Assembly (NCBI GenBank): GCA_965371665.1
Contig: CBDUZI010000001.1
Coordinates: forward strand, 9,411-73,410
Length of the DNA: 64,000 nucleotides
Reading direction: 5' to 3'
Origin: an uncultured bacterium
GTDB taxonomy: Bacteria; Oederibacteriota; JAAXVQ01; JAUVAV01
Part shown: one piece after another, positions 146 to 24,435 of the stretch
Position numbering within the stretch: position 1 is the first letter of the stretch
How the letters are laid out: the number at the start of each line of letters is the position of its first letter
Program-made: the position numbers and the translations under genes
The notes under the pieces: generated by a model
Told to the model about the DNA's origin: nothing
Database searches by the model: none
What the model saw: only the letters and a program-made list of their open reading frames with translations

Positions 146-263
146 GTCATTCCGAGCGAAGCGAGGAATCTCTAAAACCCCTGCTTTTCAAAGAGATTCC
201 TCGGTCGCTTCGCTTCCTCGGAATGACAAAAAAATTAAAATGGCCTTTCCGCAACAGAAACTA
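146..263. repeat. intergenic hairpin element, type B, copy 1
   Basis: Imperfect long inverted repeat GTCATTCCGAG..CGAGGAATCTCT (146-173) / AGAGATTCCTCG..CTCGGAATGAC (192-227), followed by the box CTTTCCGCAACAGAAACTA (245-263). The box contains the stop codon of the SBP gene. The same architecture recurs at 14443-14577. Confidence 0.7.
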
Positions 264-1571
264 TTTAGCCATTACTTTTTGTTTAGTCTTCCAAGCCTGT
301 TTAAGCACTTTTTCCGGATCAGACTTTCCGATTAAAATGGACTGCATGCCTTTTGAGATCACTTCCCGGACTTCATATTTTTCTTCCATTTTCAGGTCCG
401 GGGTAAGATTTCGCATGCCCTTGGCAAAATCCTTAAGCAAAGGATCAATCTCATCCATGGCTTGGAAATTCGCCGGTATCTGCTTGGATTCCTTGGCCAG
501 CCTGACTTGTTGCTCTTTGGACAAAAACCAGCGTAAAAAGGCTACTGCTTCCTCCGGATTTTCCGAATTGTTGGTCACCGCACAGCCTTTCCCCACCCCG
601 CCGATAAGGTACATGGGATGGGCCGCATCCTCCGGCTTGGGAAAAGGAAAAACACCCAATTCCAGTTCCGAATTCATCTCGAGATAGACATTTACCGCCC
701 AGGAACCATTCAACATCATGGCCGCCTTCTGATTGGCAAAATTGATTTCCGCGTCTTTGTTGGACATGGAAACCGCTCCGGGGTAGAGTATCTTTTTTTT
801 CTGCATATCCACCACGCGCTCGAGAACGCTTACACATCCCGGGTCAGTATAGGGCAAGGTTCCCGAGTATAACTTGCGCATTTTTTCTTCTCCCAGATAA
901 GTCCAGCAATAAGCATTAAAAAAGGTATAATCGATCCAAAGATCTCCGAAGCCCACCAGGAAGGGAGGAATGCCGGCACGGTTAAGCTGATCCCCGGCCT
1001 CCAGGAATTCGTCCCAGGTTGCCGGGGGTTTTTCGGGATCCAGACCGGCTTTTTTGAAAAGCTGCTTATTGTAATATATCTGAATATTCATTACGGAAAT
1101 CGGCACACCCCAGAAGGTATCGGGCTTAACCTCATAGGCATTGCCTTCCTCGTAATGAAACGCTTTTAAGGCCCGCGGAAAAAAGGTGTTACGCCAGGCA
1201 GAAGTATCCGCGTTCAATTTCCCGGTCATTTCATATATTCTTCCAGCCCGAATATAGCGGGCCAGAAGTTCTCCGCCTCCCGCCAAGCCAATGATATCCG
1301 GCAAGGTGTTGGCATTAGCCGAGGCTTGCAGCTTATTAAAGTAATCCGAACCGACCGGCGCCGAGAGTTCGAATGCCACCTTAACCCCGGTCTCTTCCTC
1401 ATATTCCTTGGCCATACTTTCAAACATGGATTGCTGATCCGCCCACCATTCCCAAAAAGTAATTTTTACCTCCCTCTTTTTCTCGGGGTGCTTCCCGCAC
1501 CCGAACAACAAGCCACCTACCATCAAACCGGTCAATGCCAATGTGAACAGTCTACTTCTTTGAAGCTTCAT
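261..1571 (-). CDS. ABC transporter extracellular solute-binding lipoprotein (carbohydrate type, family 1)
   Basis: 436-aa ORF. Lipoprotein signal MKLQRSRLFTLALTGLMVGGLLFGC (lipobox LFGC). Length and motifs (ITFWEWW, IQIYYNKQLFKKAGLDPEKPPATWDEF, MMLNGSWA) are typical of sugar-binding SBPs. Its ATG (1571-1569) overlaps the TGA (1570-1568) of the upstream gene. Confidence 0.9.
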   Translation of the reverse strand: MKLQRSRLFTLALTGLMVGGLLFGCGKHPEKKREVKITFWEWWADQQSMFESMAKEYEEETGVKVAFELSAPVGSDYFNKLQASANANTLPDIIGLAGGGELLARYIRAGRIYEMTGKLNADTSAWRNTFFPRALKAFHYEEGNAYEVKPDTFWGVPISVMNIQIYYNKQLFKKAGLDPEKPPATWDEFLEAGDQLNRAGIPPFLVGFGDLWIDYTFFNAYCWTYLGEEKMRKLYSGTLPYTDPGCVSVLERVVDMQKKKILYPGAVSMSNKDAEINFANQKAAMMLNGSWAVNVYLEMNSELELGVFPFPKPEDAAHPMYLIGGVGKGCAVTNNSENPEEAVAFLRWFLSKEQQVRLAKESKQIPANFQAMDEIDPLLKDFAKGMRNLTPDLKMEEKYEVREVISKGMQSILIGKSDPEKVLKQAWKTKQKVMAK

Positions 1572-4500: not shown

Positions 4501-6784
4501 TGGTATAAGGCATAACCACCAGGTCATGCTTCTTGGCCAAAGCAATGCTTTTTTTAAAATCGGCATTCGTCCCAAAGGTCGGATCAACAGGCCAGAAGTC
4601 CGGCATATGCCGATCGAAGCCTTCCAACCACCAAGCTACAAAATGAACAATCGTCCCTTTGGGCAATTCTTTAAAATATTTATTAACATAACGAAAACTG
4701 CGATTCATATCCAAAGAAATTTTCAATAATACCCCTTGCCTAATTTTAGAAAATAAGGTTTTACCCAATTTATCAATCAAAAGCGGAGCCTTGGTCAGCT
4801 TATTGTCTTTTTTAAAACGTCGCAAAGCAGCCTCAACTTTTTCACCAAATACCATTCTCAACGGTTGGCCCTCCCAGCTGGTTTTCGGCTCAATATAGGT
4901 CGTCCAAACGTGTTCATAAACACCACGCCTGCCGCGAGCGTAACCAACATTAATTCGGGTCGATTCGATCGGCTTATCTGCCCAAAGCAGAAAAGAAGAA
5001 AATTGTCCCCCGTCAGTTAAAGACCAGTTGATAAAGTCTGAGAATAAAAAGGGATAAGTCGTTTTCCAACGCCGTTTATTCTTAAAAAATTGCTGATTAA
5101 ATGCTATTCCCATACGCCACGGTAAATAAAATCGTTCAAGTTTTCCATAATCAAAGCTCAACTTGGGCATTTCCACTCCAATAACCGTCTTATCCTCATG
5201 ATTTTGAAATTTGGCATACAAATCAAAGTAGTTATAGTTACTGAACACCAAATTGACAGCCATGACCGAAGAACCTCGTTGGGAGAGCAAACGAAGCGTA
5301 CGGCTACTCTCGATCCATCGATATGAAAATTTTGCTTCCTTATCTGCCAGAAACTCCTCGGAATTGAGAAAGGTTCCTTCTTTAAACATAATCCGCCAAA
5401 GGTAAGCATGTTCAAACCCTAATGAAACTCGGGAATTATTTATCCTATCTGTCAGAGATTCGAAAACCCCGGTTTTGCGGCTCAGAATCACCTGATAATA
5501 CTTATTTTGAATTGTAAGTTGATTTCCGGTTTCAGAAAATCCCGGGGGGCTACTCTCTTGGGAAACCGTTTGGGCCCTATGCTTCTCCCCAAAAACCTTT
5601 TGCAGGCCCCCTTGATCCAGAGATTTTTTTTGCTTTTTATAGGTAACCGGCAATGGTGCTTTAGTATAGGGTTGAGCGGCGATCAGAGACGGAAGCGGTT
5701 GAATTAACTGGGAGGGAACAAAGCCTGCCACCAATTTGATTTTTCTTTTCCCGATAAATTTGACCGAAGAAAACTCGATTTCGTGACCCCTATTAGGCTT
5801 TTTCTCATCCTCGGTTGTAACTCCTAATTTTAATATAAATGTCTGCGGACCTTTTAAATAATTAAACTTCCCAGCTAAATCATAAATATACCTCCCGGGT
5901 TTGGAAATGTACTCTAAGCGATGATACCCTCCGCGAAATTGAGGGCCACTAAAAATCACATACATATTGGCGGTTAAGCGACCAACCTTAATCTCTAATT
6001 TGGGATACTCCTCGAAATCGACTGTCAGCTCTTTGTTTACACAGCCATAGCACTGGTGCGGGTAATCGCCGATTAGCTTGATTTTTTCATCTTCGGTTTT
6101 TTGAAGATGAGCGCCTGAACTCCCGCCATTTTCAGCACGATTACTCCAACCTAAAACGCTGGTTTCCAAGGTGGCCTTTTCTAACGCCGCTTCCTCAGCT
6201 TCTGATAAACCCTTCTGGGCCACCACCTTTATCTTTTTTGCCCTGCTGGAGGATACCAATTTCAAACTGGAAAATGTAAAACTCAATCCTTTATTTGCAG
6301 GACGTTCGGAAGTGGCTATCCCTAATTCCAGACGTATTCTTCGGACCCCATTCAAGCCGGTTGCTTTTCGAATATTGTAAGCTCTTTTCCCGACCGCCTT
6401 GGTTCCTTTTTCGGGCTTAATATAATCATTTTTACTAAAACCATCCTCGATATTAGGATTTTGAATCACTAAATACCAAGCCGCATTACAAGCCGTAACT
6501 TCAATTTCCAAAATAGGATATTTATCCAGGTCCCATTCAATATTCTGATAAACCATACCGTAAAAGAGGCTCGTGGAGGTGCCGATCACCCGGGCCTGGT
6601 TTTCAAAGAGCTTAATCTTAGCGCCGGTTGGGGTGTCGTCAGGCCAGGCCACACGCCAACGTTCCAGCGATTTATGCTTGGCATCGAATAAAACATGAGC
6701 CTTAACCTTGGCCTCCACGTGATTAACCCCCCAGGCAGCGAATATAAAGGCAGTAAATATTATTCCACATAAAAAATTTTTCAT
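1568..6784 (-). CDS. 1738-aa secreted multidomain protein, putative glycan-active enzyme (2 shared modules + TIM-barrel-like block + Ig-like repeats + mutarotase-like C-terminus)
   Basis: AGGAGGG lies 9 nt upstream of the ATG; signal peptide MKNFLCGIIFTAFIFAAWGVNHVEA. Two shared-module copies at about 6697-6229 and 6172-5734 (TVDFEEYPKLEIKVG). Central block at about 4750-3900 with FVAWWLEGFDRHMPDFWP, LVVMPYTNPTFW, ILFLDQIG and FFHHDLAHE, resembling uncharacterised glycoside-hydrolase-like TIM barrels. CARDB/Ig-like repeats at about 3400-2330. Galactose-mutarotase-like block at about 2330-1571 (GGRIMAFYH, EYGGINDWFPSGWPG). The CDS call is strong; confidence in the function is only about 0.4. 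Confidence 0.85.
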   Translation of the reverse strand: MKNFLCGIIFTAFIFAAWGVNHVEAKVKAHVLFDAKHKSLERWRVAWPDDTPTGAKIKLFENQARVIGTSTSLFYGMVYQNIEWDLDKYPILEIEVTACNAAWYLVIQNPNIEDGFSKNDYIKPEKGTKAVGKRAYNIRKATGLNGVRRIRLELGIATSERPANKGLSFTFSSLKLVSSSRAKKIKVVAQKGLSEAEEAALEKATLETSVLGWSNRAENGGSSGAHLQKTEDEKIKLIGDYPHQCYGCVNKELTVDFEEYPKLEIKVGRLTANMYVIFSGPQFRGGYHRLEYISKPGRYIYDLAGKFNYLKGPQTFILKLGVTTEDEKKPNRGHEIEFSSVKFIGKRKIKLVAGFVPSQLIQPLPSLIAAQPYTKAPLPVTYKKQKKSLDQGGLQKVFGEKHRAQTVSQESSPPGFSETGNQLTIQNKYYQVILSRKTGVFESLTDRINNSRVSLGFEHAYLWRIMFKEGTFLNSEEFLADKEAKFSYRWIESSRTLRLLSQRGSSVMAVNLVFSNYNYFDLYAKFQNHEDKTVIGVEMPKLSFDYGKLERFYLPWRMGIAFNQQFFKNKRRWKTTYPFLFSDFINWSLTDGGQFSSFLLWADKPIESTRINVGYARGRRGVYEHVWTTYIEPKTSWEGQPLRMVFGEKVEAALRRFKKDNKLTKAPLLIDKLGKTLFSKIRQGVLLKISLDMNRSFRYVNKYFKELPKGTIVHFVAWWLEGFDRHMPDFWPVDPTFGTNADFKKSIALAKKHDLVVMPYTNPTFWNISPTLERAGGPEEIASRDLKNDLKYEFYPSGGKGWAASPRHPAVVKAGNHIANKFFKEYGIDILFLDQIGARFIYFDLNPTLKNPIGYCQAWYENCEAYLKLGPLFTEQGYDRLIPMMSGFSGLASFTVPESVDYNNLFGEGNWEYFPIAQYLGHEHVCFFHHDLAHEVFCESHEKIVWYLAHGYHMLNGRWVSRWHNQKKWFALADQLQKRVVSKYVGKPLLNYSQPEPNRIFWSAYPDLGILANISNVHELEVLNHTVSKNGFIATNNSGTFLAGRFSRLYGFDLTGDQYLVIEREKNRITVIQLQQYQKTLLTLPRPAEWKFDEAITVRQGGRPITFVATTPQTISFYPDAVGAATEASTYVMEYNAKYKQDYFINVRASKLSATVNTEIQIGLEARNLSQKVLSNARLALSAWLVKRNEPVINSRAGYATLSPQHVLKTRPIPQLASGQVISTVFPFQIPSTAEAGDIIWLKGELITPRGRKVKTVSSQGIVKVISPFEVDILTDQQAVSAGKWTKLEVEVKNNFTEKVRGRVMLNLPKAWKGKKEEKLDLNTGKTKKLTFSVLPPSLEKKKTYDIIASFRVKKNFFKSKPQKVEVLPVWRIISCEGPRVLVKGKKSTGIIRLIASGNMSTQGTVMLTPSKGLQVEPQELNFSVPKGGEVLLEFSILPLKARKETLGFELRCPQEIKRFKLIYPVVVEGEAKVLMGDIMKRGDEDVILANAEVEIQAVQDIGGRIMAFYHRETGANMLYQNYPKIAKRKGDRDWIEYGGINDWFPSGWPGVVWNNHWEAEIVTDDGNEAAVKMYTKTRKGLLLERTMILPAKGRRLQVDYQVTNLSGDIMKYQWFNHPDLAPGKNNFADEQHRMIMPISDPENKKRVKFVTEKFIAKIDKDSYEPRAGWVVGLNQATKDYFMQLFKHEEIGQIGVWQDSNFYTMELLGKEVTLKPGEKRNFTVFYIVGNNNWKEEIK

Positions 6785-7042
6785 TAAGCATAACCCTCCT
6801 AATTCGACTCTGCAATCAGCCTTTTACAGCCTCGGCTCTTCGTCTTATACTACCCACCCCAAACCGAAAGCAAAAACTGCTTTTTAGACACAGAAGCTCG
6901 AAGATTAAATCCCAAATCCGAAGCACCAAATCCGAAACAAATCCAAATTTCAAACTTCAAAATTCAAATAAAAAACAAGAAAAATCTTTGACCGGCTTTA
7001 CAGGATATACAAGATTTTATAAAAAATCATGTTCATCCTGTC

Positions 7043-7110
7043 AAAAAAATCACTATTTTCCTGCCACAAGCGGTTAATTACGTTTATCTGCGTCCATCGG
7101 CGGTTGTTAA
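7043..7110. repeat. intergenic repeat element, type A (internal part + right terminal core)
   Basis: AAAAAAATCACTATTTTCCTGCCACAAGCGGTTAATTACGTTTATCTGCGTCCATCGGCGGTTGTTAA. Near-identical units occur at 18592-18666 and 22486-22551. Confidence 0.75.
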
Positions 7111-7175
7111 TTTCTTGGTCATTCGAATTTCGATATTCGAATTTAATTACAATCTCTCTATGCCTCTGTGGCCCT

Positions 7176-8129
7176 CTAATATACCAAACCCACCGTAAAG
7201 AATTGAGTACCTCCAAAGCTGTCTGAGCTCCAAGTGGTAACCCGATAGGCATAGTCCAAACGAAAAGTGCACACCCCTATTGCTGTCCGAACACCGACGC
7301 CAAAGGTCATGCCTTCTGTCCCATCCGGGGCCAGGGCATACCCCAGGCGGGCCGCAAAAACACCGGCATAAAAAAATTCGCCTCCCATATGCAAGCTGGT
7401 TTCGGATTCCAGAGTCTGTTCAATATCCAGCGCCACAAAAAATTTTTCCAGTAAGCCTGACAACAAATCATATTTTGCGGAAAGAACAATACGCAGGGGC
7501 AGTGGATCCGCCTCATCGATGAATTTCAGGGGCAGGCCGAGATTTTTTACCGCCAGGCCGACCAGAGCCTCGGGCGCGGCTTCCCAGAGAACGCCGATGT
7601 CCGCCGCAAGGGTATTCGCGGAATATTCTCCCAGCGTGGAATTGAGAAACTTCAAGTTCAACCCGCAGGAGAAACCATCCAAAAATTTTGAGACCGGCCG
7701 GCCCAGGGAGATGATACCCAAAATATCTCTAACCTCAACGGACGACTGGCTGGTGCCGGCATCATTTAAAGACGGCATCCCGTGGTAGACAAAGGTAACT
7801 CCCAGTACTCCGAGGTGTGAGAACGGCATGGCAAAATTCAAGATCTCGGAATAGTCTTCCGCAATTCCGGTCTGATGCGTAAAAAGCCCGCTCACCCTCT
7901 GGACGGATTGCAAACCCGCCGGATTGTAAAATATAATCCCTGGATCGCCTGTTAGGGTACCACCAGCCCCACCCAAGGCACTGGCCCGGGCTGTGTTAGC
8001 CGTCACCAGCAACAGTCCTCCAGATGTATCGGCCGCATCGGCCTGCACCGCCAGGCAGATAACCGACATGCCGGCCACCACCAGACCAGTCGTTAGCATC
8101 AACATTTGAGAAATTCTTTTTGGGCTCAT
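7176..8129 (-). CDS. outer-membrane beta-barrel protein, PorV/PorQ/FadL-like
   Basis: The ORF track gives 7176..8234. The internal ATG at 8129-8127 gives a clean signal peptide (MSPKRISQMLMLTTGLVVAGMSVICLAVQADA) and an ATGA overlap with the stop (8128-8126) of the upstream gene. N-terminal motif ARASALGGAGGTLTGDPGIIFYNPAGL, alternating beta-strand pattern, C-terminal FFTVGLVY (terminal aromatic residue). Confidence 0.75.
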   Translation of the reverse strand: MSPKRISQMLMLTTGLVVAGMSVICLAVQADAADTSGGLLLVTANTARASALGGAGGTLTGDPGIIFYNPAGLQSVQRVSGLFTHQTGIAEDYSEILNFAMPFSHLGVLGVTFVYHGMPSLNDAGTSQSSVEVRDILGIISLGRPVSKFLDGFSCGLNLKFLNSTLGEYSANTLAADIGVLWEAAPEALVGLAVKNLGLPLKFIDEADPLPLRIVLSAKYDLLSGLLEKFFVALDIEQTLESETSLHMGGEFFYAGVFAARLGYALAPDGTEGMTFGVGVRTAIGVCTFRLDYAYRVTTWSSDSFGGTQFFTVGLVY

Positions 8130-9601
8130 TTTACTACCGCTACCCGAATATTCTTCTGGAATCGATTGCTTTCGAGCCTGATGATATAGACACCGCTGGC
8201 GACCCAGTCGCCGTTGGCATTCTTGCCATCCCACCGCACCTGGTCATCCACGGCTCCGGAAGCCGGGCCGTCGACTAAGGTACGTATTTTGCGGCCGGCT
8301 AAATTGTAAACCGTGATCCTCACCCGGCTGGCGTCTTCCGCACCGTAATGAATGGTTAATGACCCTTGCTTGGGCCGGAAGATGTTGGCAGAAGGCCGGA
8401 GTTCATTCACACCAACGATGGGCGTAGGGGTAGCGGTTGGCGGTTGGCTGGTTATCTCCAAGCAGTCGAATCCGAGCTTATCGCCATCGGCACTGCCGAT
8501 CCAGATAACAACGCGGAAAGTCTTTATCCCCGACCAACCGGTCGCAGAGGCATAATCGTAAACCAGAACCCCGGGCTGGGTAAGATTCGGAGACAAGGCG
8601 TGATAGTCTGTGCCATCATAAACATTGAGTAATTGGATTGTGGCCTGCGCGCTGCCTTCAGGCTCCACGGAATCCACCGTGGCAATGAAATACGGAAAGG
8701 CCGTTACATCCGTGGTAATAGGAGCGCTTTCCATCTTGTGCTCGCCCGTACCGGTAAAGGTCACCCAGCCGATGCCGGCTTGCGCATCCAGTTGCACGTT
8801 CGTCAACGTCCAATCGCTGGGAGGATCAAAATCCTCCACCCAGCCATTATTGACTCCAGTCGGTGTCGATGTTGGAGTATAAGATGTTGGAGTATAAGTA
8901 GCACTGTTTGTCGAAGTAGGTGTTATAGTTGGCGTATCTGTCATAGTCCAATCCGGAGTCTGAGTGGATGTGGGGCTCTTGGTTGGGCTGTCCGTAGGTG
9001 AACAGACCATAGTTTCCGTGGGAGTGGGTGATACTGTCGGCGTTGCGGTGGGGGTATAATCCACGTCATAAATGCGGACCGAATCAAAAGTAGCATAACA
9101 CCACTGCGGGCCGTACACTTTAAGCACAAAATAATAGAGCTGCGTTCCACTTTCTCCAGTAACCGAAGAAATATTATAGGAATAGGTGCCGGGTACGGTG
9201 GGAGTGCCAAACACAAAATATTCCCAGGTGGGCTTCTGCAGGGCTATTTCCACCTTGGTCGTACCCGCCTGGATGTCGCTGATGACGACCTCCATCCTGT
9301 TATATGTGCTTAAATCCACTGATTTAGTAATCGATGTGACATATCCGGCTCCGTCCATGCCGGTGACGGTAATATCTGCGTAACTGTCGCTCTGGCTATA
9401 AACCATCTCTGCCGGATTCGGCCCGCCGCCCCGGTCCGTGACATCGAACCAGCTTCCGGGCTTTTCTCCGGGCGTGCCGCCGGTAAAATCATCCATCCAG
9501 AGATTTGTTGCCTGGACCAAAGCAGCTGCACTCAGGCAAAGCCACCCGGCAGCCAGCCCTATCCGGCTGACCCGCAAAAAAGTACGTCCCCCTCTATGCA
9601 T
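8126..9601 (-). CDS. secreted protein: 2 shared modules, Pro/Thr-rich linker, C-terminal FlgD-Ig / T9SS-type sorting-like domain
   Basis: GGGGA lies 7 nt upstream of the ATG; signal peptide ..GLAAGWLCLSAAALVQA. Modules at about 9499-9061 and 8851-8446. PT linker at about 9070-8880 (TPTATPTVSPTPTE...TPTSYTPTSTPTG). The last 90 aa or so (8400-8129), RVRITVYNLAGRKIRTLVDG..VRWDGKNANGDWVASGVYIIRLESNRFQKNIRVAVVK, match the FlgD-Ig/Por-secretion-tail pattern. Confidence 0.8.
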   Translation of the reverse strand: MHRGGRTFLRVSRIGLAAGWLCLSAAALVQATNLWMDDFTGGTPGEKPGSWFDVTDRGGGPNPAEMVYSQSDSYADITVTGMDGAGYVTSITKSVDLSTYNRMEVVISDIQAGTTKVEIALQKPTWEYFVFGTPTVPGTYSYNISSVTGESGTQLYYFVLKVYGPQWCYATFDSVRIYDVDYTPTATPTVSPTPTETMVCSPTDSPTKSPTSTQTPDWTMTDTPTITPTSTNSATYTPTSYTPTSTPTGVNNGWVEDFDPPSDWTLTNVQLDAQAGIGWVTFTGTGEHKMESAPITTDVTAFPYFIATVDSVEPEGSAQATIQLLNVYDGTDYHALSPNLTQPGVLVYDYASATGWSGIKTFRVVIWIGSADGDKLGFDCLEITSQPPTATPTPIVGVNELRPSANIFRPKQGSLTIHYGAEDASRVRITVYNLAGRKIRTLVDGPASGAVDDQVRWDGKNANGDWVASGVYIIRLESNRFQKNIRVAVVK

Positions 9602-9611
9602 ACGCCATCCC

Positions 9612-12600
9612 CTAGAAAGTTACGGTTACCTGGGCCCAGACAGCGTTCTGACCCCAGTTTTTTTCATTTTCAAAAGGAAAATAAACTTTGTTCATTTCGC
9701 CATGCAGCCGTATGTAACCCCCGGCTAAATCCCGCAGCAGACCCACGGCCAGTTTGTCGCGTATCTCCTCCGCTTGTCCGTGTTTAGACATGCAGGAAAT
9801 TTCGCGACCGAAATCTAAGGAAAATTTATATTCATTGAAAAACAGCACCGAGTTTTGCAGGTAAAGCCCGTGGAAGATAGGTACATCCCAGTTCTCGTCC
9901 GGTTCATACCCCTGCGGCAAATAATAGGTATTGTGAATCGGGGCACTCGCATTGGCCTGCCTCCCGCCGAACCGACCGATATAGACTGGCTGCATGGCAA
10001 AGACCTCTTCCAGCAGATAATGCTTATAGCGGATATCCACCGTAGCTAAGTTGCCGTAATACCTCCTGCGTTCTCTATCCAGCTCCTGGTCCAGCCGGAA
10101 GCGATCCAAGAGAGTCATTTTCAATCCAAAGGGAGCATTGTATATAACTTTCAGCTCAGGAGTCACGGTTAAATTGTCGGTGTAATCCAAGGTGAGCGGG
10201 ATTTCCTCGTCATTGGCTGTGTAAAGGGCGTACTGATCCGAGATATCGTCTCGGATTCTCGCCCCATAAGCGCCGACTTCAAACACCCAATCGTCAATAT
10301 CTGTATTCTTATACTTTAGGGTCAAGGATACGGATTGGTTTCTGCCAGGCTTGGAAAGCCGTTTGATATAATGTCCGTCCAAGCGTATTTCCATATTAGA
10401 AGCATAAGTACCTTCCAACACCTGGCGAGGAATAATCGCCGAAAAGGAATATCCTCTTTGATCGCGACGATAAGGATAATCCGGCTCGTGGTCGTTTTCC
10501 CGGCTGTCAAGGATACCGTTGTGATTCAAATCCTCGCTTTCGTGGAAAAGGTAATCCTGCGGAATGTACAGACCGTTGACGTATTCCTGACTAGGCTGGC
10601 CCAGATTGTAAAAATCACCGAAAATGACCCCGTTTTTTTCCGTATCCCAGTCCGGAAGAAGCGCACAACTGTCATTATCCTCCACCACGTCATAATTCAG
10701 CAGCTTGGTGGAATAATCCTTAGACAAGTTGAAATAACTAGCCTTTAAAAGCGCACCCTCGATCCCGCGGGAAAGGGTAACGAAATAGGCATTGGCCATA
10801 CGGTTCACGCGGTCGCCAGTATAAGCTTGATTGTGCGCGATGGAAACTGCGTATTCGGCTGCCAGGTTGATGCCTAAAAGCTGGCCGCGTAAATCCGCTC
10901 CGAGTATGGAGCACGCCTGCGTACCTTCGTCCCTAAAGGTCCCGCTTTTCAGCCTCTCCAGCTGGTCTGCCGTAAGGGTATAGTCAACATCCACTACAGG
11001 CTCATGCGTTGTAAATGTGCTGTAACTTTCAATTAGCCGCCAGTTTTCGCCGTCCGAAGAAATACTGAAATCGATAGTGCCATCATCGGGGATATGCCAA
11101 CAGCTAAGCTCCAGGTGTCCGGAAACGGCTTGTATCTGGGAAGGTAGCACGCGTCCTCCGCTGTTGGCGCCTGTGGTTAGAACCAAGGGAACTCTTAAGA
11201 CCAGGTAACCGCCCTCATTGATACCCCGGGCGGCATTGTTCGGGTCGGTGTCGATCAGGTCTATGTAGGTGTTACTTTGGTCGGAGACGTATGCTATACT
11301 ACTGTCATCAACATCCGGGCTGAAATCCGGTGATATTGGATTTCCGGCAGAATTGGCGATGGTCATGTAATTAGTGTCTTCTGTCTTGAAATAAAGATTG
11401 GATTCATTGGGATGGGTGGTGTTGGTGGTATGATTCTCGATTTTAACGTAAACCGAAGGTACGAAATTTTGATAAACCTCGGGCGGCTCGTCTGGGCCCA
11501 TGAACAGGTTAGTATCCATCTCGCCGTTGCTTTTGGATAAATTGACGGCCGAAAGACCAAGCTGCACCGTGCCGATCCGGATGGAGAAATTCTTGGCCGC
11601 ACGCAGGCCGGTCATGAAAACGTTGGTTTTATTATAATCGCTACTGGAGGATGACAGCCGGGTTCCAAACAGCTTGAAACATATGTCCCCAAGCTTCGGC
11701 TGCCAGAGAATGCCTCGAAAAGTAGAGGCTTTCTTAAAAGTCAGGTCCGTGAACAGTGGTTCGTAAACCGTACCGAGCTGGGCCATATTTCCGATGTATA
11801 AATCCTGATATCTCAACAAGCCATAGTCGAGCTGGGGAGTAAGATAGCGGCCAGCTGGTTCTTCCCAGCGGACGTTATTTTTCTCGTTGATTATGTCGTA
11901 GCCCAAAGAGGCCCAGATATCGACATTTTCAAAAGGGTGAATATAGGAAATTAAATAAAATTTTTGCGTAATTTCATTGAACCCGATATCCTTCAAAGGG
12001 ATACCCCAGCGGTTCAGTCCGGTCCAGTCCTCGTTTTTGGCCACGCCGTCCAGCCACATAGCACGATAGGTTTGATAGGCTACGCCAGAAATTTTGAGAA
12101 TATCCGCATCTTTGGCAGGTGCAATGGCCTCGGGTTTCACTCCCGGGATTGGTAGCATAATCCCCTGGGCTGTCGCCATCTTGCTGGAGAAGCCGATGGC
12201 ATTTAAGGCAACTTGAGTGCCAGCGCCTTCCAGAAAAAACTCAATAAAAAAAGTCTGCTCAGTTTTCCAGCCTGTGAGATCAGGCACATTGGCCATATAG
12301 ACGCCGGCTCGGGAGAAGCGGGGAGTAATTATACGAAAATTATCCGGATTGCGGGCATGAATCAAATGCACCCTTACTTTTCCACGTTCTAATTCACGTC
12401 CCAATTCGATCTCCAAATAGGGATACTTGGAAAAATCCACGGTCAAAGGTTTTTTCGGAGACAAAAATCTGCCATATGTCACCTTTTCTTTTAATTTCAG
12501 CAGGATTTCCCCACCCTTTTGAACCTTTGCAATGGTATTCAAGCCCTTTTCAATTGAATTATCACGCCAGCCATTCAAACCTTTTGCCCAATTCTCAAAA

Positions 12601-13226
12601 TACTTATAAGATTTTGATTTATCTCCTCTAAAATCCTTTTTAACTTTTCGAGCCCCTTTGGCCAATAGACTTTTAGCGACTTTGGATTTTTCAGACTTTG
12701 CCAAACTCTGCGCAGGCTTATTGACCAGTGCCAGACCTTCCCCGATTCGCAACTGGGAAACCTTTGCCTCAGCACCAGAGCCTCCCAACCAGAGGGTGAC
12801 CCAGAAATCTTTAATTTCTTTCCACGGCGTTGATTTCATGATGCTCACGCTGTAGATTCCGGGTTGGGTAATTCCATTCAAAATCTTATACCCGGCATAA
12901 GGCCGATGCGCGTCCATAAGCTCCACGTCCATCGAGCCGTCCTCACTTATCTCATCTATAATAATCTGAAGAACCAAGCCAGAGGTAATATTCATGGCAA
13001 TGGCTTTTTCAGGAGTCATAACCTTACCATACTCGAAGCTGCCCGGCACAGAGATCAAGGCCTGTTTCTCATGCCTCTCCAGCAGCGCATGGAAGTCGGG
13101 ATTGGTCCGGTTATCCCGCCAACCCTTAAACTCGGCTTGGTAAAAATCCTGTACCGCCAACGAGGGAATAACCGATATCACTAAGGCTAGCAGCAGAAAA
13201 CATGTGCCGAAACGAAACTGCTTCAT
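9612..13226 (-). CDS. 1204-aa outer-membrane protein: 2 N-terminal shared modules + very large C-terminal beta-barrel-like region
   Basis: AGGAGGGGAGAG lies directly upstream of the ATG; signal peptide MKQFRFGTCFLLLALVISVIPSLA. Modules at about 13151-12735 (FKGWRDNRTNPDF) and 12608-12189 (TVDFSKYPYLEIELG), joined by a Lys-rich linker. The remaining 850 aa or so are rich in alternating aromatic/polar strands and end in NAVWAQVTVTF (a C-terminal Phe, as in OMP signatures). Confidence 0.8.
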   Translation of the reverse strand: MKQFRFGTCFLLLALVISVIPSLAVQDFYQAEFKGWRDNRTNPDFHALLERHEKQALISVPGSFEYGKVMTPEKAIAMNITSGLVLQIIIDEISEDGSMDVELMDAHRPYAGYKILNGITQPGIYSVSIMKSTPWKEIKDFWVTLWLGGSGAEAKVSQLRIGEGLALVNKPAQSLAKSEKSKVAKSLLAKGARKVKKDFRGDKSKSYKYFENWAKGLNGWRDNSIEKGLNTIAKVQKGGEILLKLKEKVTYGRFLSPKKPLTVDFSKYPYLEIELGRELERGKVRVHLIHARNPDNFRIITPRFSRAGVYMANVPDLTGWKTEQTFFIEFFLEGAGTQVALNAIGFSSKMATAQGIMLPIPGVKPEAIAPAKDADILKISGVAYQTYRAMWLDGVAKNEDWTGLNRWGIPLKDIGFNEITQKFYLISYIHPFENVDIWASLGYDIINEKNNVRWEEPAGRYLTPQLDYGLLRYQDLYIGNMAQLGTVYEPLFTDLTFKKASTFRGILWQPKLGDICFKLFGTRLSSSSSDYNKTNVFMTGLRAAKNFSIRIGTVQLGLSAVNLSKSNGEMDTNLFMGPDEPPEVYQNFVPSVYVKIENHTTNTTHPNESNLYFKTEDTNYMTIANSAGNPISPDFSPDVDDSSIAYVSDQSNTYIDLIDTDPNNAARGINEGGYLVLRVPLVLTTGANSGGRVLPSQIQAVSGHLELSCWHIPDDGTIDFSISSDGENWRLIESYSTFTTHEPVVDVDYTLTADQLERLKSGTFRDEGTQACSILGADLRGQLLGINLAAEYAVSIAHNQAYTGDRVNRMANAYFVTLSRGIEGALLKASYFNLSKDYSTKLLNYDVVEDNDSCALLPDWDTEKNGVIFGDFYNLGQPSQEYVNGLYIPQDYLFHESEDLNHNGILDSRENDHEPDYPYRRDQRGYSFSAIIPRQVLEGTYASNMEIRLDGHYIKRLSKPGRNQSVSLTLKYKNTDIDDWVFEVGAYGARIRDDISDQYALYTANDEEIPLTLDYTDNLTVTPELKVIYNAPFGLKMTLLDRFRLDQELDRERRRYYGNLATVDIRYKHYLLEEVFAMQPVYIGRFGGRQANASAPIHNTYYLPQGYEPDENWDVPIFHGLYLQNSVLFFNEYKFSLDFGREISCMSKHGQAEEIRDKLAVGLLRDLAGGYIRLHGEMNKVYFPFENEKNWGQNAVWAQVTVTF

Positions 13227-13272
13227 CTCTCCCCTCCTGATATGAGTGGTTATTTAAGGCTGAAATATAAGA

Positions 13273-14313
13273 TTAATTTCGGATGTGAATATATTTGATG
13301 CCCGCCCCGGCCTCGGTCTCCGGAGCTCCGGTAGTTCCCATCCAAATTTGAATCCAAAAAACTTTAGCGCCTCTCCATTTGGTCTTTTCGTTAATATTTA
13401 CCGTATATACCCCAGGGCGGGTAACAAAAGGCATGAGAGTGTAGTTAGTGTAAGGTGCCTGCGCAAGCATAAGTTCAACTTTTACTTTGCTCGTCCCCAT
13501 ATCCCCAAAAGCAATCTCAAATTTTGTGGAAGGGGTAATCTTGGCTTTAATCCCGCTTGAATCTGACATCAACTTACAATATTTTCTGCCAGGAATTATT
13601 TTTAGCCGCGGAACATCTCCTTCAAAATTCAACTCACTCCCGAATTCCGGGTCGGTTTCAGCCGTTCTCCACCCCCCAACTCCATTCCTGAAATCTTCAA
13701 AAAAGATACTGTTTGGGGGCATAGGCGCAAACTTTTTCAAGGTAAACGCTTTTATGGCCGCCAGCTTTCTTTGTTTTTCTAAAATATTAGCATCCTGAAA
13801 AAAAACCTCCTTGATAATCACACTTTTTTTTTCACCTTCCAGCCAGACCTTGATCCACATGCTGGTAACACCCTTCCAGCCTGTCAACTCATGAACATTT
13901 GCTTTATATTCTCCTGATTTTCCTTGAAGTTTGGCAACCCGATAGGAATTATAAGGTTCATAAGCATGCATTAAATAAACCGTTGCTATTGTGTCCGGAG
14001 CAATTCGGTCAACCTTGATGACAATCTCGGTTTTCCGGGTAATATTAATGGTAATCGGGTCGGCTTTTGACATCGCTTTACCGTAGGCCACGTTAGGGGT
14101 CGAAATCTTTAGTCTTCTTCCCTGTACCTGTACCTGCGTATTAAAACCAAGATCAGTAGAATTATCCCGCCAATTTTTAAAGTCTTCCTGATAGACAATC
14201 CCTAACCCTTCATTATCATTACTTTTTTTTGCGAATGAAGTCCGAAGAAGTAAGAAGGAAAAAAGCATCACTATAATAATAGTCGGACAAAAAAACATTT
14301 TTGAAGGGTGCAT
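13273..14313 (-). CDS. secreted protein made of two shared modules
   Basis: The ORF track starts at 14349. The ATG at 14313 has AAAGGAAA 6 nt upstream and gives the signal peptide MHPSKMFFCPTIIIVMLFSFLLLRTSFA. Modules at about 14205-13794 (DFKNWRDNSTDLGF ... TGWKGVTSMWIKVWLEG) and 13706-13276. Confidence 0.8.
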   Translation of the reverse strand: MHPSKMFFCPTIIIVMLFSFLLLRTSFAKKSNDNEGLGIVYQEDFKNWRDNSTDLGFNTQVQVQGRRLKISTPNVAYGKAMSKADPITINITRKTEIVIKVDRIAPDTIATVYLMHAYEPYNSYRVAKLQGKSGEYKANVHELTGWKGVTSMWIKVWLEGEKKSVIIKEVFFQDANILEKQRKLAAIKAFTLKKFAPMPPNSIFFEDFRNGVGGWRTAETDPEFGSELNFEGDVPRLKIIPGRKYCKLMSDSSGIKAKITPSTKFEIAFGDMGTSKVKVELMLAQAPYTNYTLMPFVTRPGVYTVNINEKTKWRGAKVFWIQIWMGTTGAPETEAGAGIKYIHIRN

Positions 14314-14442
14314 ACAAATTTCCTTTCTCAAAACTAAATTTGGAGACAAACCGACTATTAGGGAGTTGTCCCGAATGGTACTAACTTAAGAGTTTTATTT
14401 GGCATTATCACTAATTTACGTAATTAAATTTAAAATCACAAT

Positions 14443-14577
14443 GTCATTCCCGAATGTATTTATCGGGAATCCAGGTGTAATGCTAAATAAAGAATATTAT
14501 TATACCTCTGGTTCCCCGATTAAAGCATTCGGGTATGACAACCCTTTCAGAAAACACTCTTTCCGCAACAGAAACTA
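14443..14577. repeat. intergenic hairpin element, type B, copy 2
   Basis: Long imperfect inverted repeat GTCATTCCCGAATGTATTTATCGGGAATCCAGG (14443-) / CCTCTGGTTCCCCGATTAAAGCATTCGGGTATGAC (-14539), followed by CTCTTTCCGCAACAGAAACTA (14557-14577). Same stem ends (GTCATTCC/GGxATGAC) and same 3' box as 146-263. Confidence 0.7.
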
Positions 14578-14705
14578 ACTAAATATTTATTTGTTACTTC
14601 TTGTTATAGGGGGTTGCTTGTGATCAAATAACCGCGTAAAGAAAATACTCTTGTTTCCGAGAAATTCTTCTTTTTCCCGGAAACAAGAGAAATATTTTTC
14701 ATCTA

Positions 14706-15329
14706 TTATTTTTTTACTTTTTCAGCGCTTTTTACTTTTACCTTACTTTTTACTTTGTCACTTTTCTTCTTTATTCTACTTTTCTTCTTAATTTTACTTT
14801 TTCTTCCTTTTTCCTTTGCGACTATTTTTTTGCCATCTGTAATGCATACATCCGATATCTTCGCAACGGGATTTTCCTCCCCGCCTATCCAGATTTCTAT
14901 CCAAAAAGTATGTTCCTCCTGCCCCGGCCATGGCGTCTTTTCAGCCAGCTTCGCGGTATAAACTCCTTTGTCACTTGCTTCGGCAATGAGTTTATGGGAA
15001 TCATAAGGGTCACCAGCTGTCATAAGTTTAACTGTAATGGAGCCTTGGGAAATATCATCAAGCAATTTCAGGGAAAGCTCTGTGTTTTCTTCGATATTAA
15101 TTGTAATTCCAGCTTCAGATGACATAACCTTTCCAATTTTTTTCTCAGGAATAGCAGTTATAATCCCGATTTCATTCTTCTCATCCAATTCAAACTTGGC
15201 CTTAAATCCTGGATTGGTACTCTCATCGCGCCAATCGGAGAAATCATCCTTATACAAATTTTTTCCCTGCACAGAAGCAACGATACCCAGAGCGAATACA
15301 GCCGTTAAAAATACTTTTAAAAATTTCAT
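14706..15329 (-). CDS. secreted single-module protein with poly-Lys C-terminal tail
   Basis: GGGGAGGGAAG upstream of the ATG; signal peptide MKFLKVFLTAVFALGIVASVQG. One module at about 15260-14835 (DFSDWRDESTNPGF ... HTFWIEIWIGGEENPVAKISDVCI). Tail at 14834-14709: KEKGRKSKIKKKSRIKKKSDKVKSKVKVKSAEKVKK. Confidence 0.8.
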   Translation of the reverse strand: MKFLKVFLTAVFALGIVASVQGKNLYKDDFSDWRDESTNPGFKAKFELDEKNEIGIITAIPEKKIGKVMSSEAGITINIEENTELSLKLLDDISQGSITVKLMTAGDPYDSHKLIAEASDKGVYTAKLAEKTPWPGQEEHTFWIEIWIGGEENPVAKISDVCITDGKKIVAKEKGRKSKIKKKSRIKKKSDKVKSKVKVKSAEKVKK

Positions 15330-15613
15330 TTTCTTCCCTCCCCATCAAAAATTTTAAACTTACTTTTTTTGGGGTAACTGAAAACCCCTAAAAATGGACG
15401 CTTATAATAAAATAAGTTATTTCACTTTAAAAGTCAAATAAATTATCCATCCCGCCTAAAAAATTCCCTCCTTTCTTTATGATTTTCATCGAGATATGTG
15501 GGTTCTTTCCTTAAATATTAGTTAAGACCTCGGCAAGAGCAAAAATATTACATAACTAATGTGAGTTACTTAAACAAAATATAGCATATTTCCGAAATAT
15601 ACTGCGCTCCGGG

Positions 15614-16618
15614 TTACTCGCCGGCTGGACCGATCTTGATCTCATCATAACGTGTGCCGGTAGCCGGGCCGGCCGTGCCTTGCTCTACTATCAGCTCAAT
15701 TATAAATTCCTTGCTGCCTTCCCAGCCTGTGATACTTTTAATGTCATAATTATAGATGCCGGGTCCAAAATACTGGCTAATCAAAATACTATCCTGGCCG
15801 GTCTCTTTCAGAAAAATCTTGTTGCCTGTACCAGAATCAACTCCGGTCACCACCACTCGCATATTATTATTCCCATCCACATCCAATGTTATGGTATCCG
15901 AGTATACAATGCCCCAGACATCGCCGGCCCCAAAGGTTACCTTGGCGGAATCATCTCCATTTGTGAGGATTTGCCCATTATGGCCAGTGTACCATCCCCC
16001 GGGCTGGCCGGGGTCTTCTTCATAATGCTCGACATAGCCATCAGAACCGGAGTTATAAATCCAGATCTCATCGTAACGCGTGCCGCCCGAATTTGGACCA
16101 CCTGTTCCTTTTTCCGCCACCAACTCGATAAGAATTTCCTTGGTGCCGGTCCACGGTATACTAAAATTGTAAATCCCCGCCCCAAAATATTCGGCAATTG
16201 TAACCTTTTCCTCGGTTACGACATTTTTTAGAATTATTTTGTTGTTGGTGTCAGAATCCACATCAGTTACCACCATGCGCATACTGTTATTTTCATTTAG
16301 ATCGATTTCAAAAGGGTCGCAGTACACAACACCCCAAACATCGCTTGCACTGTAAATGGCCTTGGCCGAACCGGTTCCGTTAGTCGTTATCTGGCCATTA
16401 TAGCCTGGGTTCCATCCCCCGGGTTGGCTGGTAGTGGTTTCCTCAAAATGCTCTAAATAGGGATCAGCTACATCCCCTGCCATTTTCACGGTGAGAGTAT
16501 AATTTAGCGCTTCGGCTGCAAATATCTGGCTGCTGCAGAAGAACAACAATGTCAAGCCTAAAGAGGCTGCGCGCATATCCTGCCAATAATTTCTCTGCCG
16601 GCAGCTAATTGTTTTCAT
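15614..16618 (-). CDS. secreted protein made of two tandem shared-module copies
   Basis: The ORF track starts at 16672. The ATG at 16618 has GGGGGA 7 nt upstream and gives the signal peptide MKTISCRQ..SLGLTLLFFCSSQIFA. Internal tandem duplication: YLEHFEETTTSQPGGWNPGYNGQITTNG...RYDEIWIY versus YVEHYEEDPGQPGGWYTGHNGQILTNG...RYDEIKI (about 16465-16057 and 16045-15640). Confidence 0.8.
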   Translation of the reverse strand: MKTISCRQRNYWQDMRAASLGLTLLFFCSSQIFAAEALNYTLTVKMAGDVADPYLEHFEETTTSQPGGWNPGYNGQITTNGTGSAKAIYSASDVWGVVYCDPFEIDLNENNSMRMVVTDVDSDTNNKIILKNVVTEEKVTIAEYFGAGIYNFSIPWTGTKEILIELVAEKGTGGPNSGGTRYDEIWIYNSGSDGYVEHYEEDPGQPGGWYTGHNGQILTNGDDSAKVTFGAGDVWGIVYSDTITLDVDGNNNMRVVVTGVDSGTGNKIFLKETGQDSILISQYFGPGIYNYDIKSITGWEGSKEFIIELIVEQGTAGPATGTRYDEIKIGPAGE

Positions 16619-16655: not shown

Positions 16656-16789
16656 CTTAACCGCAGATGCACGCCGATTAAGAATCTTTTTTAAATCCCC
16701 CCCTCCTCCCCCCTTGAAAAAGAGGGATAGAAGAAGCACCCTTAGTAAAGGGATGATTCGGGGAATTTATCTGCGTTCATCGGCGGTTA
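16656..16789. repeat. intergenic repeat element, type A, full MITE-like unit with terminal inverted repeats
   Basis: Left end TTAACCGCAGATGCACGCCGAT (16656-16677) is the inverted copy (19/22) of the right end ATCTGCGTTCATCGGCGGTTAA (16768-16789). The spacer is about 90 nt. The right-end TTA provides the stop codon of the OmpA-fusion gene (16789-16787). Confidence 0.7.
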
Positions 16790-24344: not shown

Positions 24345-24435
24345 CCTTTCATACTTAATTCGCCGTTTACCTTAGGTTTGCATTCTTGCAGCCTGTAAAG
24401 AAGTTTATATTTATTCCGCTCCAGATAATTTTTTT

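Follow-up and report, generated by a model that had tools for sequence, protein, structure and literature searches.

Seven proteins encoded in one locus, from a 207-aa product to a giant of 12,729 residues, contain the same module of about 140 residues, which raises the question of what a common domain would do in proteins so different in size and architecture. The window that we analyzed is a 64,000-nucleotide stretch from an uncultured bacterium, and all genes of the locus lie on its minus strand. The original prediction held that 17 or more copies of a beta-sandwich module of no named family define a gene array, and that small module-only proteins are binding subunits cooperating with the giant. 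This interpretation is partly supported. We think it probable that the module is a carbohydrate-binding module (CBM)-like family providing shared glycan recognition in a locus for glycan capture, degradation and import.

Homology and number of the modules

The predicted segments translate as open frames and contain the motifs quoted for them, among these TVDFSKYPYLEIELG for the 1204-aa protein and TVDFEEYPKLEIKVG for the 1738-aa one. Pairwise BLASTP linked a core of copies at 1e-12 to 1e-26 (both from the 1204-aa protein, both from the 346/358-aa protein and that of the 207-aa protein), and an iterative HMM search of the window's own proteins picked up each of the 11 copies that lie outside the giant, the best of the reversed and locally shuffled decoys reaching an E of about 3. 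Profile-profile comparisons connected the small-protein with the 1738-aa copies (95.7%, E 8.5e-9), the giant with the 1738-aa copies (97.6%, E 4e-12) and, collinearly, the small-protein with the giant copies (77%, E 2e-5). Three N-terminal copies and one C-terminal copy of the giant form a sub-family with the two 1738-aa copies. They were also matched, at E 1e-15 to 2e-7 and with 0 decoy matches, by a family HMM of 306 domain instances from which the giant's copies had been excluded; when hhalign was slid along the full length of the giant, no copy beyond these four emerged.

The modules of the seven minus-strand proteins are thus homologous, as predicted, and their firm count is 15, 11 outside the giant and 4 within it (Table 1). 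The figure of 17 or more was too high, as two of six copies proposed in the giant fell below support. The three at 62475-61225 and one of the two within 31480-30500 were recovered, but two are not established: that at 33720-33170 (aa 10045-10228), for which hhalign gave a probability of 27-32% and HMMER an E of about 1, and the second within 31480-30500 (aa about 10960-11118), with a probability of 16%. Identity is 14-36% among paralogous modules versus 44-56% among orthologues, which suggests that the paralogues are old and position-specific.

Table 1. Modules, associated domains and neighboring genes of the locus (window positions)
Feature	Coordinates	Strand	Basis
Solute-binding protein, sugar-type ABC	261..1571	-	SBP_bac_1 E 1.9e-38
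1738-aa protein, remainder: DUF6259 (putative catalytic), NPCBM_assoc-like, C-terminal beta-supersandwich-like region	1568..5749	-	DUF6259 E 1.3e-12 (Pfam)
1738-aa protein, module copy 2 (aa 202-345)	5750..6181	-	HMM, profile-profile
1738-aa protein, module copy 1 (aa 32-178)	6251..6691	-	HMM, profile-profile
PorV/PorQ-family outer-membrane protein gene	7176..8132	-	NF033709 117.5 bits (cut-off 90)
491-aa protein, T9SS-type C-terminal sorting domain	8141..8362	-	TIGR04183 27.4 bits (cut-off 23); FlgD_ig 30.1 bits (cut-off 27)
491-aa protein, module copy 2 (aa 244-385)	8447..8872	-	HMM
491-aa protein, module copy 1 (aa 40-179)	9065..9484	-	HMM
1204-aa protein, C-terminal ~850 aa, SlpA_C-like outer-membrane beta-barrel region	9615..12176	-	Pfam SlpA_C E 1.6e-6
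1204-aa protein, module copy 2 (aa 209-348)	12183..12602	-	HMM
1204-aa protein, module copy 1 (aa 25-163)	12738..13154	-	HMM
346/358-aa protein, module copy 2 (aa 216-358)	13276..13704	-	HMM
346/358-aa protein, module copy 1 (aa 49-186 of 358-aa ORF)	13792..14205	-	HMM
207-aa protein, polybasic Lys-rich C-terminal tail	14709..14834	-	Seen in sequence
207-aa protein, sole module copy (aa 22-165)	14835..15266	-	HMM E 4e-32; reference copy for structure model
334/352-aa protein, module copy 2 (aa 216-349)	15626..16027	-	HMM
334/352-aa protein, module copy 1 (aa 76-207 of 352-aa ORF)	16052..16447	-	HMM
Two ABC permease genes	23496..25338	-	Domain matches
Giant, module copy 4 (aa 10816-10955)	30988..31407	-	HMM, hhalign scan
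Giant, module copy 3 (aa 747-880)	61213..61614	-	HMM, hhalign scan
Giant, module copy 2 (aa 601-734)	61651..62052	-	HMM, hhalign scan
Giant, module copy 1 (aa 460-593)	62074..62475	-	HMM, hhalign scan
Giant, divergent GH5-like (clan GH-A) domain (aa 170-407)	62632..63345	-	Pfam Cellulase 26.4 bits (cut-off 23.5)

Fold and classification

The AF2 model of the 207-aa module (pLDDT 96.8, pTM 0.91) shows a predicted beta-sandwich/jelly-roll of CBM type with about 11 strands, the kind of fold that had been proposed. Foldseek aligned it at TM 0.5-0.65 to CBM4, 16, 17, 22, 27, 30 and 61, with an identity of only 4-18% in the structural alignments and no single CBM family standing out. Assignment to a named family failed here as well. 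Searches of Pfam-A with 86 diverse modules gave scattered chance matches (best E 0.0056, no family matched by more than two members), NCBIfam gave zero matches, and the best hit of the family HMM among PDB sequences was an unrelated Ig protein (E 0.044). By these searches, the module is a previously unclassified family, absent from Pfam, NCBIfam and PDB sequences.

In the CAZy sense of a CBM, we find a discrete, non-catalytic beta-sandwich/jelly-roll module in the predicted structure, and it occurs within carbohydrate-active enzymes whose catalytic assignments are weak or putative. The closest known beta-sandwich modules are CBM29, CBM86, CBM22, CBM11, CBM4, CBM16 and the module of the GH9 xanthanase 6FHN. 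As in CBMs, glycoside-hydrolase-like domains and secretion or sorting domains carry the module as an attachment, frequently in tandem copies. Unlike them, it has no detectable sequence relationship to Pfam, NCBIfam or PDB entries, its carbohydrate binding is putative, and many of its copies lie in module-only proteins rather than enzymes. The most conserved residues, a Trp (99%) and three Gly (93%, 97% and 91%), look structural rather than ligand-specific, which we count against glycan binding.

Architecture of the module proteins

Three genes encode a signal peptide and modules only, in agreement with the original prediction: those for the 207-aa (one copy), 346-aa (two) and 334-aa (two) products. 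The first adds a polybasic tail, and its orthologues P0002-P0005 also have a K/R-rich tail. The module proteins of the window begin with hydrophobic signal-like sequences, and most copies come with a Sec-type signal only; by inspection, the three module-only proteins have no lipobox Cys where cleavage is predicted. In the 491-aa protein, a Thr/Pro-rich linker joins the two copies. This protein resembles type IX secretion system (T9SS) cargo in its TIGR04183/FlgD_ig-type C-terminal domain and in the PorV/PorQ-family gene that follows it, with a likely ATG 1 nt past its stop codon. In contrast to T9SS cargo, the sorting domain is confined to this protein and absent from the other six module proteins. 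A 316-aa neighbor scores 18.5 bits for this domain, below cut-off, and Por_Secre_tail was found in nine other family members tested. Among core T9SS components, only PorV/PorQ-family genes were seen in the window, and the lineage here appears FCPU426-like rather than Bacteroidota. The non-module part of the 1738-aa protein has no relative among PDB sequences.

The giant is a polytopic membrane protein that bears SecA DEAD-like domains and an almost complete SecY-like domain as well as segments of carbohydrate-active and CBM-like type, with solute-binding proteins, transporters and hydrolases encoded downstream. Its GH5-like domain lies directly upstream of module copies 1-3, and a hydropathy scan places hydrophobic segments on both sides of this cassette (aa 79-97 and 900-918). 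The assignment to GH5 is barely above cut-off, and the catalytic assignments of the module's other partners likewise appear weak. The same cassette also exists as stand-alone secreted enzymes: giant residues 134-720 share 33% identity over 630 aa with P0023, and a further homologue of the segment, P0133, shows a GH5 match and a sorting domain.

Giants of Omnitrophota are SecA-domain membrane proteins (West-Roberts et al., 2023, bioRxiv 10.1101/2023.11.21.568195), and the present one is similar in exceeding 10,000 aa, in its polytopic topology, SecA DEAD-like domains and carbohydrate-active/CBM-like segments, and in its downstream solute-binding, transport and hydrolase genes. It differs in its near full-length SecY-like domain, its closest labelled genome, which is FCPU426, and its 140-aa module, where the Omnitrophota giants have helix-flanked CBM35-like barrels of ~200 aa; a module common to a giant and neighboring genes is not described in that preprint (10.1101/2023.11.21.568195).

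Gene neighborhood and wider family

The array combines one-module and two-module proteins, a two-module protein with an SlpA-like barrel, a two- to three-module protein with a sorting domain, a PorV-like protein, an ABC importer and a large two-module enzyme. The stop of the 1738-aa gene and the start of the solute-binding protein gene overlap, and genes nearby specify fusions of PorV-like barrels with OmpA domains of the peptidoglycan-binding kind. An AT-rich, ORF-free gap of 1.18 kb separates the array from the unit formed by the giant and the permeases. The array, with its module positions, is conserved in four other genomes (L001, L006-L008), accompanied by the ABC importer, a homologue of the 1738-aa enzyme and, directly upstream, a TonB-ExbB-ExbD cluster; there the permease genes are part of the array itself, with the PorV-like gene on one side and the homologue of the 1738-aa enzyme on the other.

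The module is present throughout the array, as claimed, but is not confined to it: an exhaustive search yielded 532 cluster representatives. At least two copies occur in 95% of 149 family representatives, and 26% of representatives are module-only. Fusion partners include GH5, GxGYxYP putative hydrolases, DUF6259, F5/8 type C, a 3-keto-disaccharide hydrolase domain and CHB_HEX_C. In an Elusimicrobiota MAG, the gene order is LacI, a four-copy module-only protein, GH99/71, a solute-binding protein, two permeases, GH65 and GH130. Elsewhere, a six-copy module-only protein adjoins two GH99-like genes, GH130, an SSF transporter and AraC regulators, and a 4789-aa protein with 11 copies, the longest tandem run, has four LacI genes and one GH99/71 gene in its flanks. 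In other loci of this kind, with module-only or module-plus-enzyme proteins, no giant gene was seen within the 10-kb flanks.

Possible role of the module

In favor of glycan recognition, we count the homology of the copies, their fold, the catalytic fusions, the giant-free contexts, the conservation of the array, the lineage and the context within the window (solute-binding protein, two permeases, PT-rich linker and signal-like N-termini). Carbohydrate binding is what we infer for the module, as are its ligand, its surface or periplasmic site and any functional link to the giant; a binding role would fit its fusion partners as well as its gene contexts in other loci. The module would then be attached to every extracytoplasmic component of a putative glycan system: three Sec-exported module-only proteins, the sorting-domain protein, the SlpA-like barrel protein, the 1738-aa putative enzyme and the GH5-like segment of the giant. 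Its paralogues would bind a polysaccharide or fragments thereof and retain the glycan at the cell envelope beside catalytic domains, with products passed on to the adjacent ABC importer, and the module-only proteins may act as non-catalytic surface or periplasmic glycan-binding proteins. We count the weak catalytic assignments of the partners (GH5 marginal, DUF6259 uncharacterized) against this proposal.

That one module is common to seven co-located proteins, giant included, could also mean that the modules are cohesin-like assembly units, through which the small, barrel and sorting-domain proteins dock mutually or onto the giant. Such an envelope-spanning machine would match the suggestion of subunits cooperating with the giant, and the near-universal tandem copies and old, position-specific paralogues would suit it. 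We nevertheless consider it rather unlikely: unlike in cellulosome scaffolding, neither cohesin nor dockerin has a Pfam match in any array protein or in the giant, a long non-coding gap parts the array from the giant, the GH5-plus-modules cassette exists in ordinary secreted enzymes, and module-only and module-plus-enzyme proteins also occur in other loci, beside LacI/AraC regulators and glycoside hydrolases, with no giant gene seen in the 10-kb flanks.

Many copies may be periplasmic because of their Sec-only signals without a lipobox, the position of giant copies between membrane segments and the analogy with SlpA, on which the 1204-aa protein would have its N-terminus on the periplasmic side. 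This site fits less well with the classical CBM role on insoluble substrates and is counted against glycan capture. In Deinococcus SlpA, an SLH domain lies ahead of the barrel; two modules take this place in the 1204-aa protein, and SlpA_C was matched in six of its seven orthologues (best E 8.9e-12). The modules might accordingly replace SLH as periplasmic tethers or scaffolds whose ligand is a glycan of the cell's own envelope, either peptidoglycan or a polymer associated with it. The nearby PorV-like barrels and OmpA domains, the Sec-only signals, the Ton cluster of the related genomes and the conserved polybasic tail of the 207-aa protein, which suits anionic envelope polymers, are consistent with this idea. 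It is unlikely to hold, however, as it leaves unexplained both the fusions to GH5, GxGYxYP, F5/8-C and T9SS-sorted cargo (exported enzymes/adhesins) and the module-only genes that have a LacI regulator on one side and GH/ABC genes on the other. A role as inert structural spacers (X-modules) extending or stabilizing large secreted proteins would suit the failure to define a ligand site, the structural look of the conserved residues and the long tandem runs (up to 11 copies per protein). We consider it very improbable, as spacers in such proteins usually have Ig, FN3 or PKD folds, a jelly-roll being atypical, and the module-only products (26% of representatives, three genes here) and the gene order conserved across genomes would go unexplained.

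For the preferred role in glycan capture and import, a parallel is found in SusE/SusF of Bacteroidota, which are also non-catalytic, tandem CBM-like beta-sandwiches whose locus also encodes outer-membrane proteins, hydrolases and importers; sugar regulation at comparable module loci elsewhere extends the likeness. In contrast to SusE/SusF, the module-only proteins have no lipoprotein signal, belong to another sequence family and another phylum, and are accompanied by an ABC importer in place of the SusC/SusD pair, neither a TonB-dependent receptor nor SusD having a match within the window. The closest labelled genome with the array belongs to candidate division FCPU426, whose 16S cluster has been identified with Goldbacteria, a lineage that was obtained using cellulose as bait (PMC7031533).

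Homology and copy number of the module

A module of about 140 residues, in 17 or more copies, had been proposed to link at least seven proteins of the window. Homology across seven proteins stands, with a firm count of 15 copies by hhalign and HMM. The coordinates first given translate without stop codons, and the quoted motifs are present. Eleven copies lie outside the 12,729-aa giant protein. Five of them, the 207-aa copy and the pairs in the 1204-aa and 346-aa proteins, form a core set in which BLASTP values range from 1e-12 to 1e-26. The 334-aa pair matches at 5e-48, and the copies of the 491-aa and 1738-aa proteins are tied in by weaker links. When an HMM seeded with the five core copies was iterated across the window proteins, with reversed and block-shuffled decoys, it picked up all eleven non-giant copies, the best decoy reaching only E ~3.

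The three N-terminal copies of the giant are mutually related (1e-15 to 1e-53) and are matched by a fourth near residues 10,800-10,950; giant and 1738-aa copies match reciprocally. Collinear profile-profile comparisons gave 95.7% for the small proteins against the 1738-aa copies, 97.6% for the giant against the 1738-aa copies and 77% (E 2e-5) for the small proteins against the giant. Trained on 306 instances from databases and the window, with the giant excluded, a family HMM detects all four copies of the giant (1e-15 to 2e-7) and matches no decoy, and sliding hhalign over all 12,729 residues exceeds 50% probability at these four only. Four of the six copies originally claimed in the giant are thus supported. 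The other two, at residues 10045-10228 (27-32%) and as the second copy within nucleotides 31480-30500 (16%), were not accepted and may be degenerate copies.

A new sequence family with a common fold

When the 15-copy profile was run exhaustively with HMMER against 1.84 billion cluster representatives, defined at 50% identity, 532 proteins passed E ≤ 1e-3; of these, 310 reached ≤ 1e-10 and 99 reached ≤ 1e-30. Among the best 149 proteins from outside the window, 95% have at least two copies, the most being 11 in one of 4789 aa; 26% consist of little but modules, and 13 are at least 2000 aa long. Those members that have a name are called "hypothetical protein" or are named after a FlgD_ig-like sorting domain, and source labels, where given, point to an Elusimicrobiota MAG or to unclassified bacteria. 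Word-indexed protein searches with module alignments recovered only orthologues of the 207-aa protein.

The hallmark positions of the family agree with the consensus first drawn by eye: an N-terminal Trp (99%), the Gly of a YGK strand (93%), a D/N (93%) followed by a Y/F-P-x-L-E motif, a Gly (97%) preceding Y-x-Y-D/N, a TGW-x-x-x-G loop whose final Gly is 91% conserved, and a Phe (72%).

The module had been described as unassignable to a named family, and our searches bear this out. No Pfam or NCBIfam model matches the module regions of the window proteins or of the several multi-copy homologues scanned; 86 diverse modules scanned singly gave scattered, chance-level Pfam matches and none in NCBIfam; and the family profile matched no PDB sequence. 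Literature searches found no paper describing the family. At the level of sequence it is therefore new, lying outside Pfam-A (2025 copy), NCBIfam release 20 and the sequences of solved structures.

For the module of the 207-aa protein, AlphaFold2 with an 86-sequence family alignment predicts an all-beta fold of about eleven strands and one short helix (pLDDT 96.8, pTM 0.91), and Foldseek gives concordant matches to CBM families 4, 16, 17, 22, 27, 30 and 61 (TM 0.5-0.65). The suggestion of a CBM- or lectin-like beta-sandwich was thus correct. Sequence identity to the structural matches is 4-18% and no one family stands out, which makes the module a new sequence family on the common CBM jelly-roll fold. 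This fold and its logic, tandem CBM-like modules on enzymes and non-catalytic binding proteins, are already well known. Such a well-populated unannotated family, with a high-confidence predicted fold and clear boundaries, could become a Pfam or CAZy entry.

Conservation of the gene array

Three species-representative genomes, one labelled candidate division FCPU426, turned out in a genome scan to encode an orthologue of the 1204-aa protein, and a fourth related locus was reached via the 207-aa orthologue MCD4814480.1. The 16S cluster of FCPU426 has been treated as equivalent to Goldbacteria, which were recovered with cellulose as bait (PMC7031533). All four loci share one order: homologues of the 316-aa and 592-aa proteins; a TPR protein, a 295-aa protein, ExbB, two ExbD and TonB; a one-module protein, a two-module protein and a two-module protein with the SlpA-like barrel; a sorting-domain protein with two to three modules, a PorV-like gene and two permeases; and finally a two-module homologue of the 1738-aa protein and a solute-binding protein. 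Module positions are kept throughout. Orthologues share 44-65% identity and the permeases ~80%, compared with just 14-36% among paralogous modules, which indicates an old duplication with each position maintained since.

The 64-kb window differs in that the Ton cluster is absent, with the 334-aa two-module gene in its place. The position of this cluster in the related loci hints that the array is linked to an energy-driven step at the outer membrane. In the window the permeases adjoin the giant gene; in the four loci (L001 17951-19821) they follow the PorV-like gene and precede the 1738-aa homologue, which is a local rearrangement.

Array proteins and their location

The C-terminal ~850 residues of the 1204-aa protein match Pfam SlpA_C below the cut-off, and six of its seven orthologues match this family of Deinococcus S-layer/outer-membrane barrels (best E 8.9e-12). 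On these Pfam matches the protein is a putative outer-membrane barrel; AlphaFold2 modelling of its mature form with six sequences gave a mean pLDDT of 34, and ~25 across the barrel region. If it is arranged like SlpA, its modules would lie on the periplasmic side. Of the seven module proteins in the window, a sorting domain is present in the 491-aa protein alone, and none has a lipobox. Inner-membrane segments lie either side of the module copies of the giant. The module proteins may sit at the surface or in the periplasm.

The 207-aa protein ends in a Lys-rich tail of ~40 residues, and K/R-rich tails of 20-25 residues end all of the orthologues P0002-P0005. Such a tail may hold the protein electrostatically to an anionic polymer of the envelope or to an anionic substrate. 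As a small soluble target with a single module, this protein is suited to ligand screening and crystallography. For the 1738-aa protein, PDB sequences gave no informative relative.

Directly ahead of its three N-terminal modules, the giant protein has a GH5-like domain of divergent sequence (Pfam Cellulase, 26.4 bits; cut-off 23.5), whose single weak match among PDB sequences is to a DUF5060 protein with a W..NE motif (E 0.004). Hydrophobic segments at residues 79-97 and 900-918, of ~52 such segments in all, bracket this stretch, which from hydropathy is probably an extracytoplasmic loop. Two ordinary-sized proteins (P0023 and P0133), both ending in a T9SS-type sorting domain, share 33% identity with it over 630 residues. 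Given this homology, the first ~900 residues of the giant resemble a conventional secreted enzyme with appended modules, set as a cassette within a very large membrane protein, and offer a testable way into part of the function of such giants. A word-indexed search with the first 3300 residues found no homologous giant, and metagenome scans with the last 1000 residues or the 316-aa neighbour gave nothing or only contigs below 3 kb. The repeats of Omnitrophota giants are different (CBM35-like, ~200 aa), and their downstream genes are described as encoding binding proteins, transporters and hydrolases, with no mention of a module shared with neighbours (West-Roberts et al., 2023; bioRxiv 10.1101/2023.11.21.568195).

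Possible functions of the module

Across the family, fusion partners include GxGYxYP putative hydrolases, DUF6259, F5/8 type C, 3-keto-disaccharide hydrolase, CHB_HEX_C and SLH domains and several beta-propellers; Por_Secre_tail occurs in nine of the family proteins tested. Module-only proteins elsewhere occupy sugar-regulated loci. In the Elusimicrobiota MAG, PorV-like and CHU_C genes are followed by LacI, a four-copy module protein, GH99/71, a solute-binding protein, two permeases, GH65 and GH130. A six-copy module-only protein adjoins two GH99-like genes, GH130, a sodium-solute symporter and AraC regulators, and the 4789-aa protein with 11 copies has four LacI genes and a GH99/71 gene on its flanks.

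The best-supported reading, which we infer with some confidence, is glycan binding by the module. Through their paralogous copies, the soluble, sorted, barrel-linked and enzyme components would then share an affinity for a polysaccharide or for fragments of one. Binding would keep substrate beside the catalytic domains and supply the ABC importer, and module-only proteins would act like the non-catalytic glycan-binding proteins of polysaccharide-utilisation loci. The cooperation of these proteins with the giant that had first been suggested is hypothetical.

The uncertain location keeps three other explanations in play. That the modules mediate protein assembly is unlikely, as the fusions and sugar-regulated contexts are better explained by glycan capture. 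Periplasmic binding of the cell's own envelope glycan seems quite unlikely to us, and falls short of glycan capture on the same fusions and contexts. Inert spacers, which explain both observations less well than glycan capture does, are highly improbable.

Within glycan binding, it is a long shot that the array forms a new type of envelope-spanning uptake machine or relay in FCPU426/Elusimicrobiota-like diderms. Glycan would cross the outer membrane through the SlpA-like barrel protein, which has two modules at its N-terminus and would be energised by the TonB-ExbB-ExbD cluster found directly upstream in the four related genomes; soluble module-only proteins would pass it across the periplasm to the ABC importer and to the GH5-plus-modules loop that belongs to the giant inner-membrane protein. 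The module would then be a common relay handle and not a simple enzyme-targeting CBM. If glycan binding is shown, a recurring protein set becomes interpretable in poorly known polysaccharide-associated phyla (FCPU426/Goldbacteria-like, Elusimicrobiota). The domain family is solid, sizeable and unannotated, in an unusual genomic setting and with a clear experimental route.

Layout of the window and side features

All substantial ORFs of the window are on the minus strand, and several abut or overlap: the PorV-like gene starts 1 nt past the stop of the 491-aa gene, and the solute-binding gene overlaps that of the 1738-aa gene.

Features of the window, numbered in transcription order where applicable, and Ton clusters of the four related loci
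Feature	Coordinates	Strand	Remark
1. Giant gene, 12,729-aa ORF	63852-25663	-	
2. Two ABC permease genes	23496-25338	-	directly downstream of giant gene
3. ORF-free AT-rich gap, 1.18 kb	22317-23495		
4. Small genes, 221, 328 and 261 aa	19720-22316	-	exported-looking; between permeases and array
5. 316-aa gene			ahead of 592-aa gene
6. 592-aa gene			PorV-like barrel fused to OmpA domain
7. 334/352, 207, 346/358, 1204 and 491 aa, PorV/PorQ-family gene, 1738 aa			in that order
8. Sugar-type solute-binding protein			last gene
Giant, hydrophobic cluster, aa 28-97	63562-63771	-	N-terminal
Giant, hydrophobic cluster, aa 1061-1136	60445-60672	-	near-verbatim recurrence
Giant, SecY-like domain	56734-57669	-	Pfam E 6.5e-40; profile positions 1-304 of 306
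Giant, SecA_DEAD	55708-56430	-	
Giant, SecA P-loop	54130-54789	-	
1204-aa protein, SlpA_C-matching region	9615-12176	-	
207-aa protein, Lys-rich tail	14709-14834	-	
PorV/PorQ-family barrels, one OmpA-fused, and T9SS-type sorting domains	7176-8132; 16787-18565; 18676-19626	-	
TPR-295 aa-ExbB-ExbD-ExbD-TonB cluster	L001 3131-9768; L006 2336-9479; L007 1551-7887; L008 2873-9753		directly upstream of 207-aa orthologue

The 1.18-kb gap has no ORF of at least 100 aa and lies within the part of the window with the lowest GC (~0.38 vs ~0.5 elsewhere). Rfam matched no RNA family in the window, the gap included. It is probably a regulatory or promoter region dividing the giant-plus-permease unit from the downstream array. 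The 261-, 328- and 221-aa proteins have no family assignment apart from a Fn3-like domain in the 328-aa protein.

The PorV/PorQ-family barrels and T9SS-type sorting domains occur in a genome whose nearest labelled relative, FCPU426, is outside the Bacteroidota; no core T9SS genes were seen within the window.

Within the giant, a near full-length SecY-like domain is directly followed by the SecA domains. In previously described giants, SecA domains lie inside the protein and SecYEG is encoded elsewhere, non-syntenically (10.1101/2023.11.21.568195). A SecY-SecA fusion within a giant, in an apparently FCPU426-like genome, may be unreported. The two hydrophobic clusters of the giant (for example AVVITTGLVLSIPVLVLFV vs VAVIITTGLVLSIPVLLLF) point to an internal duplication bracketing the GH5-plus-modules loop.

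GC is also 0.38 at 14001-16000, covering the 207-aa and 334-aa genes, against 0.45-0.53 in neighbouring segments; the 334-aa gene in this low-GC stretch is the array member absent from the four related loci.
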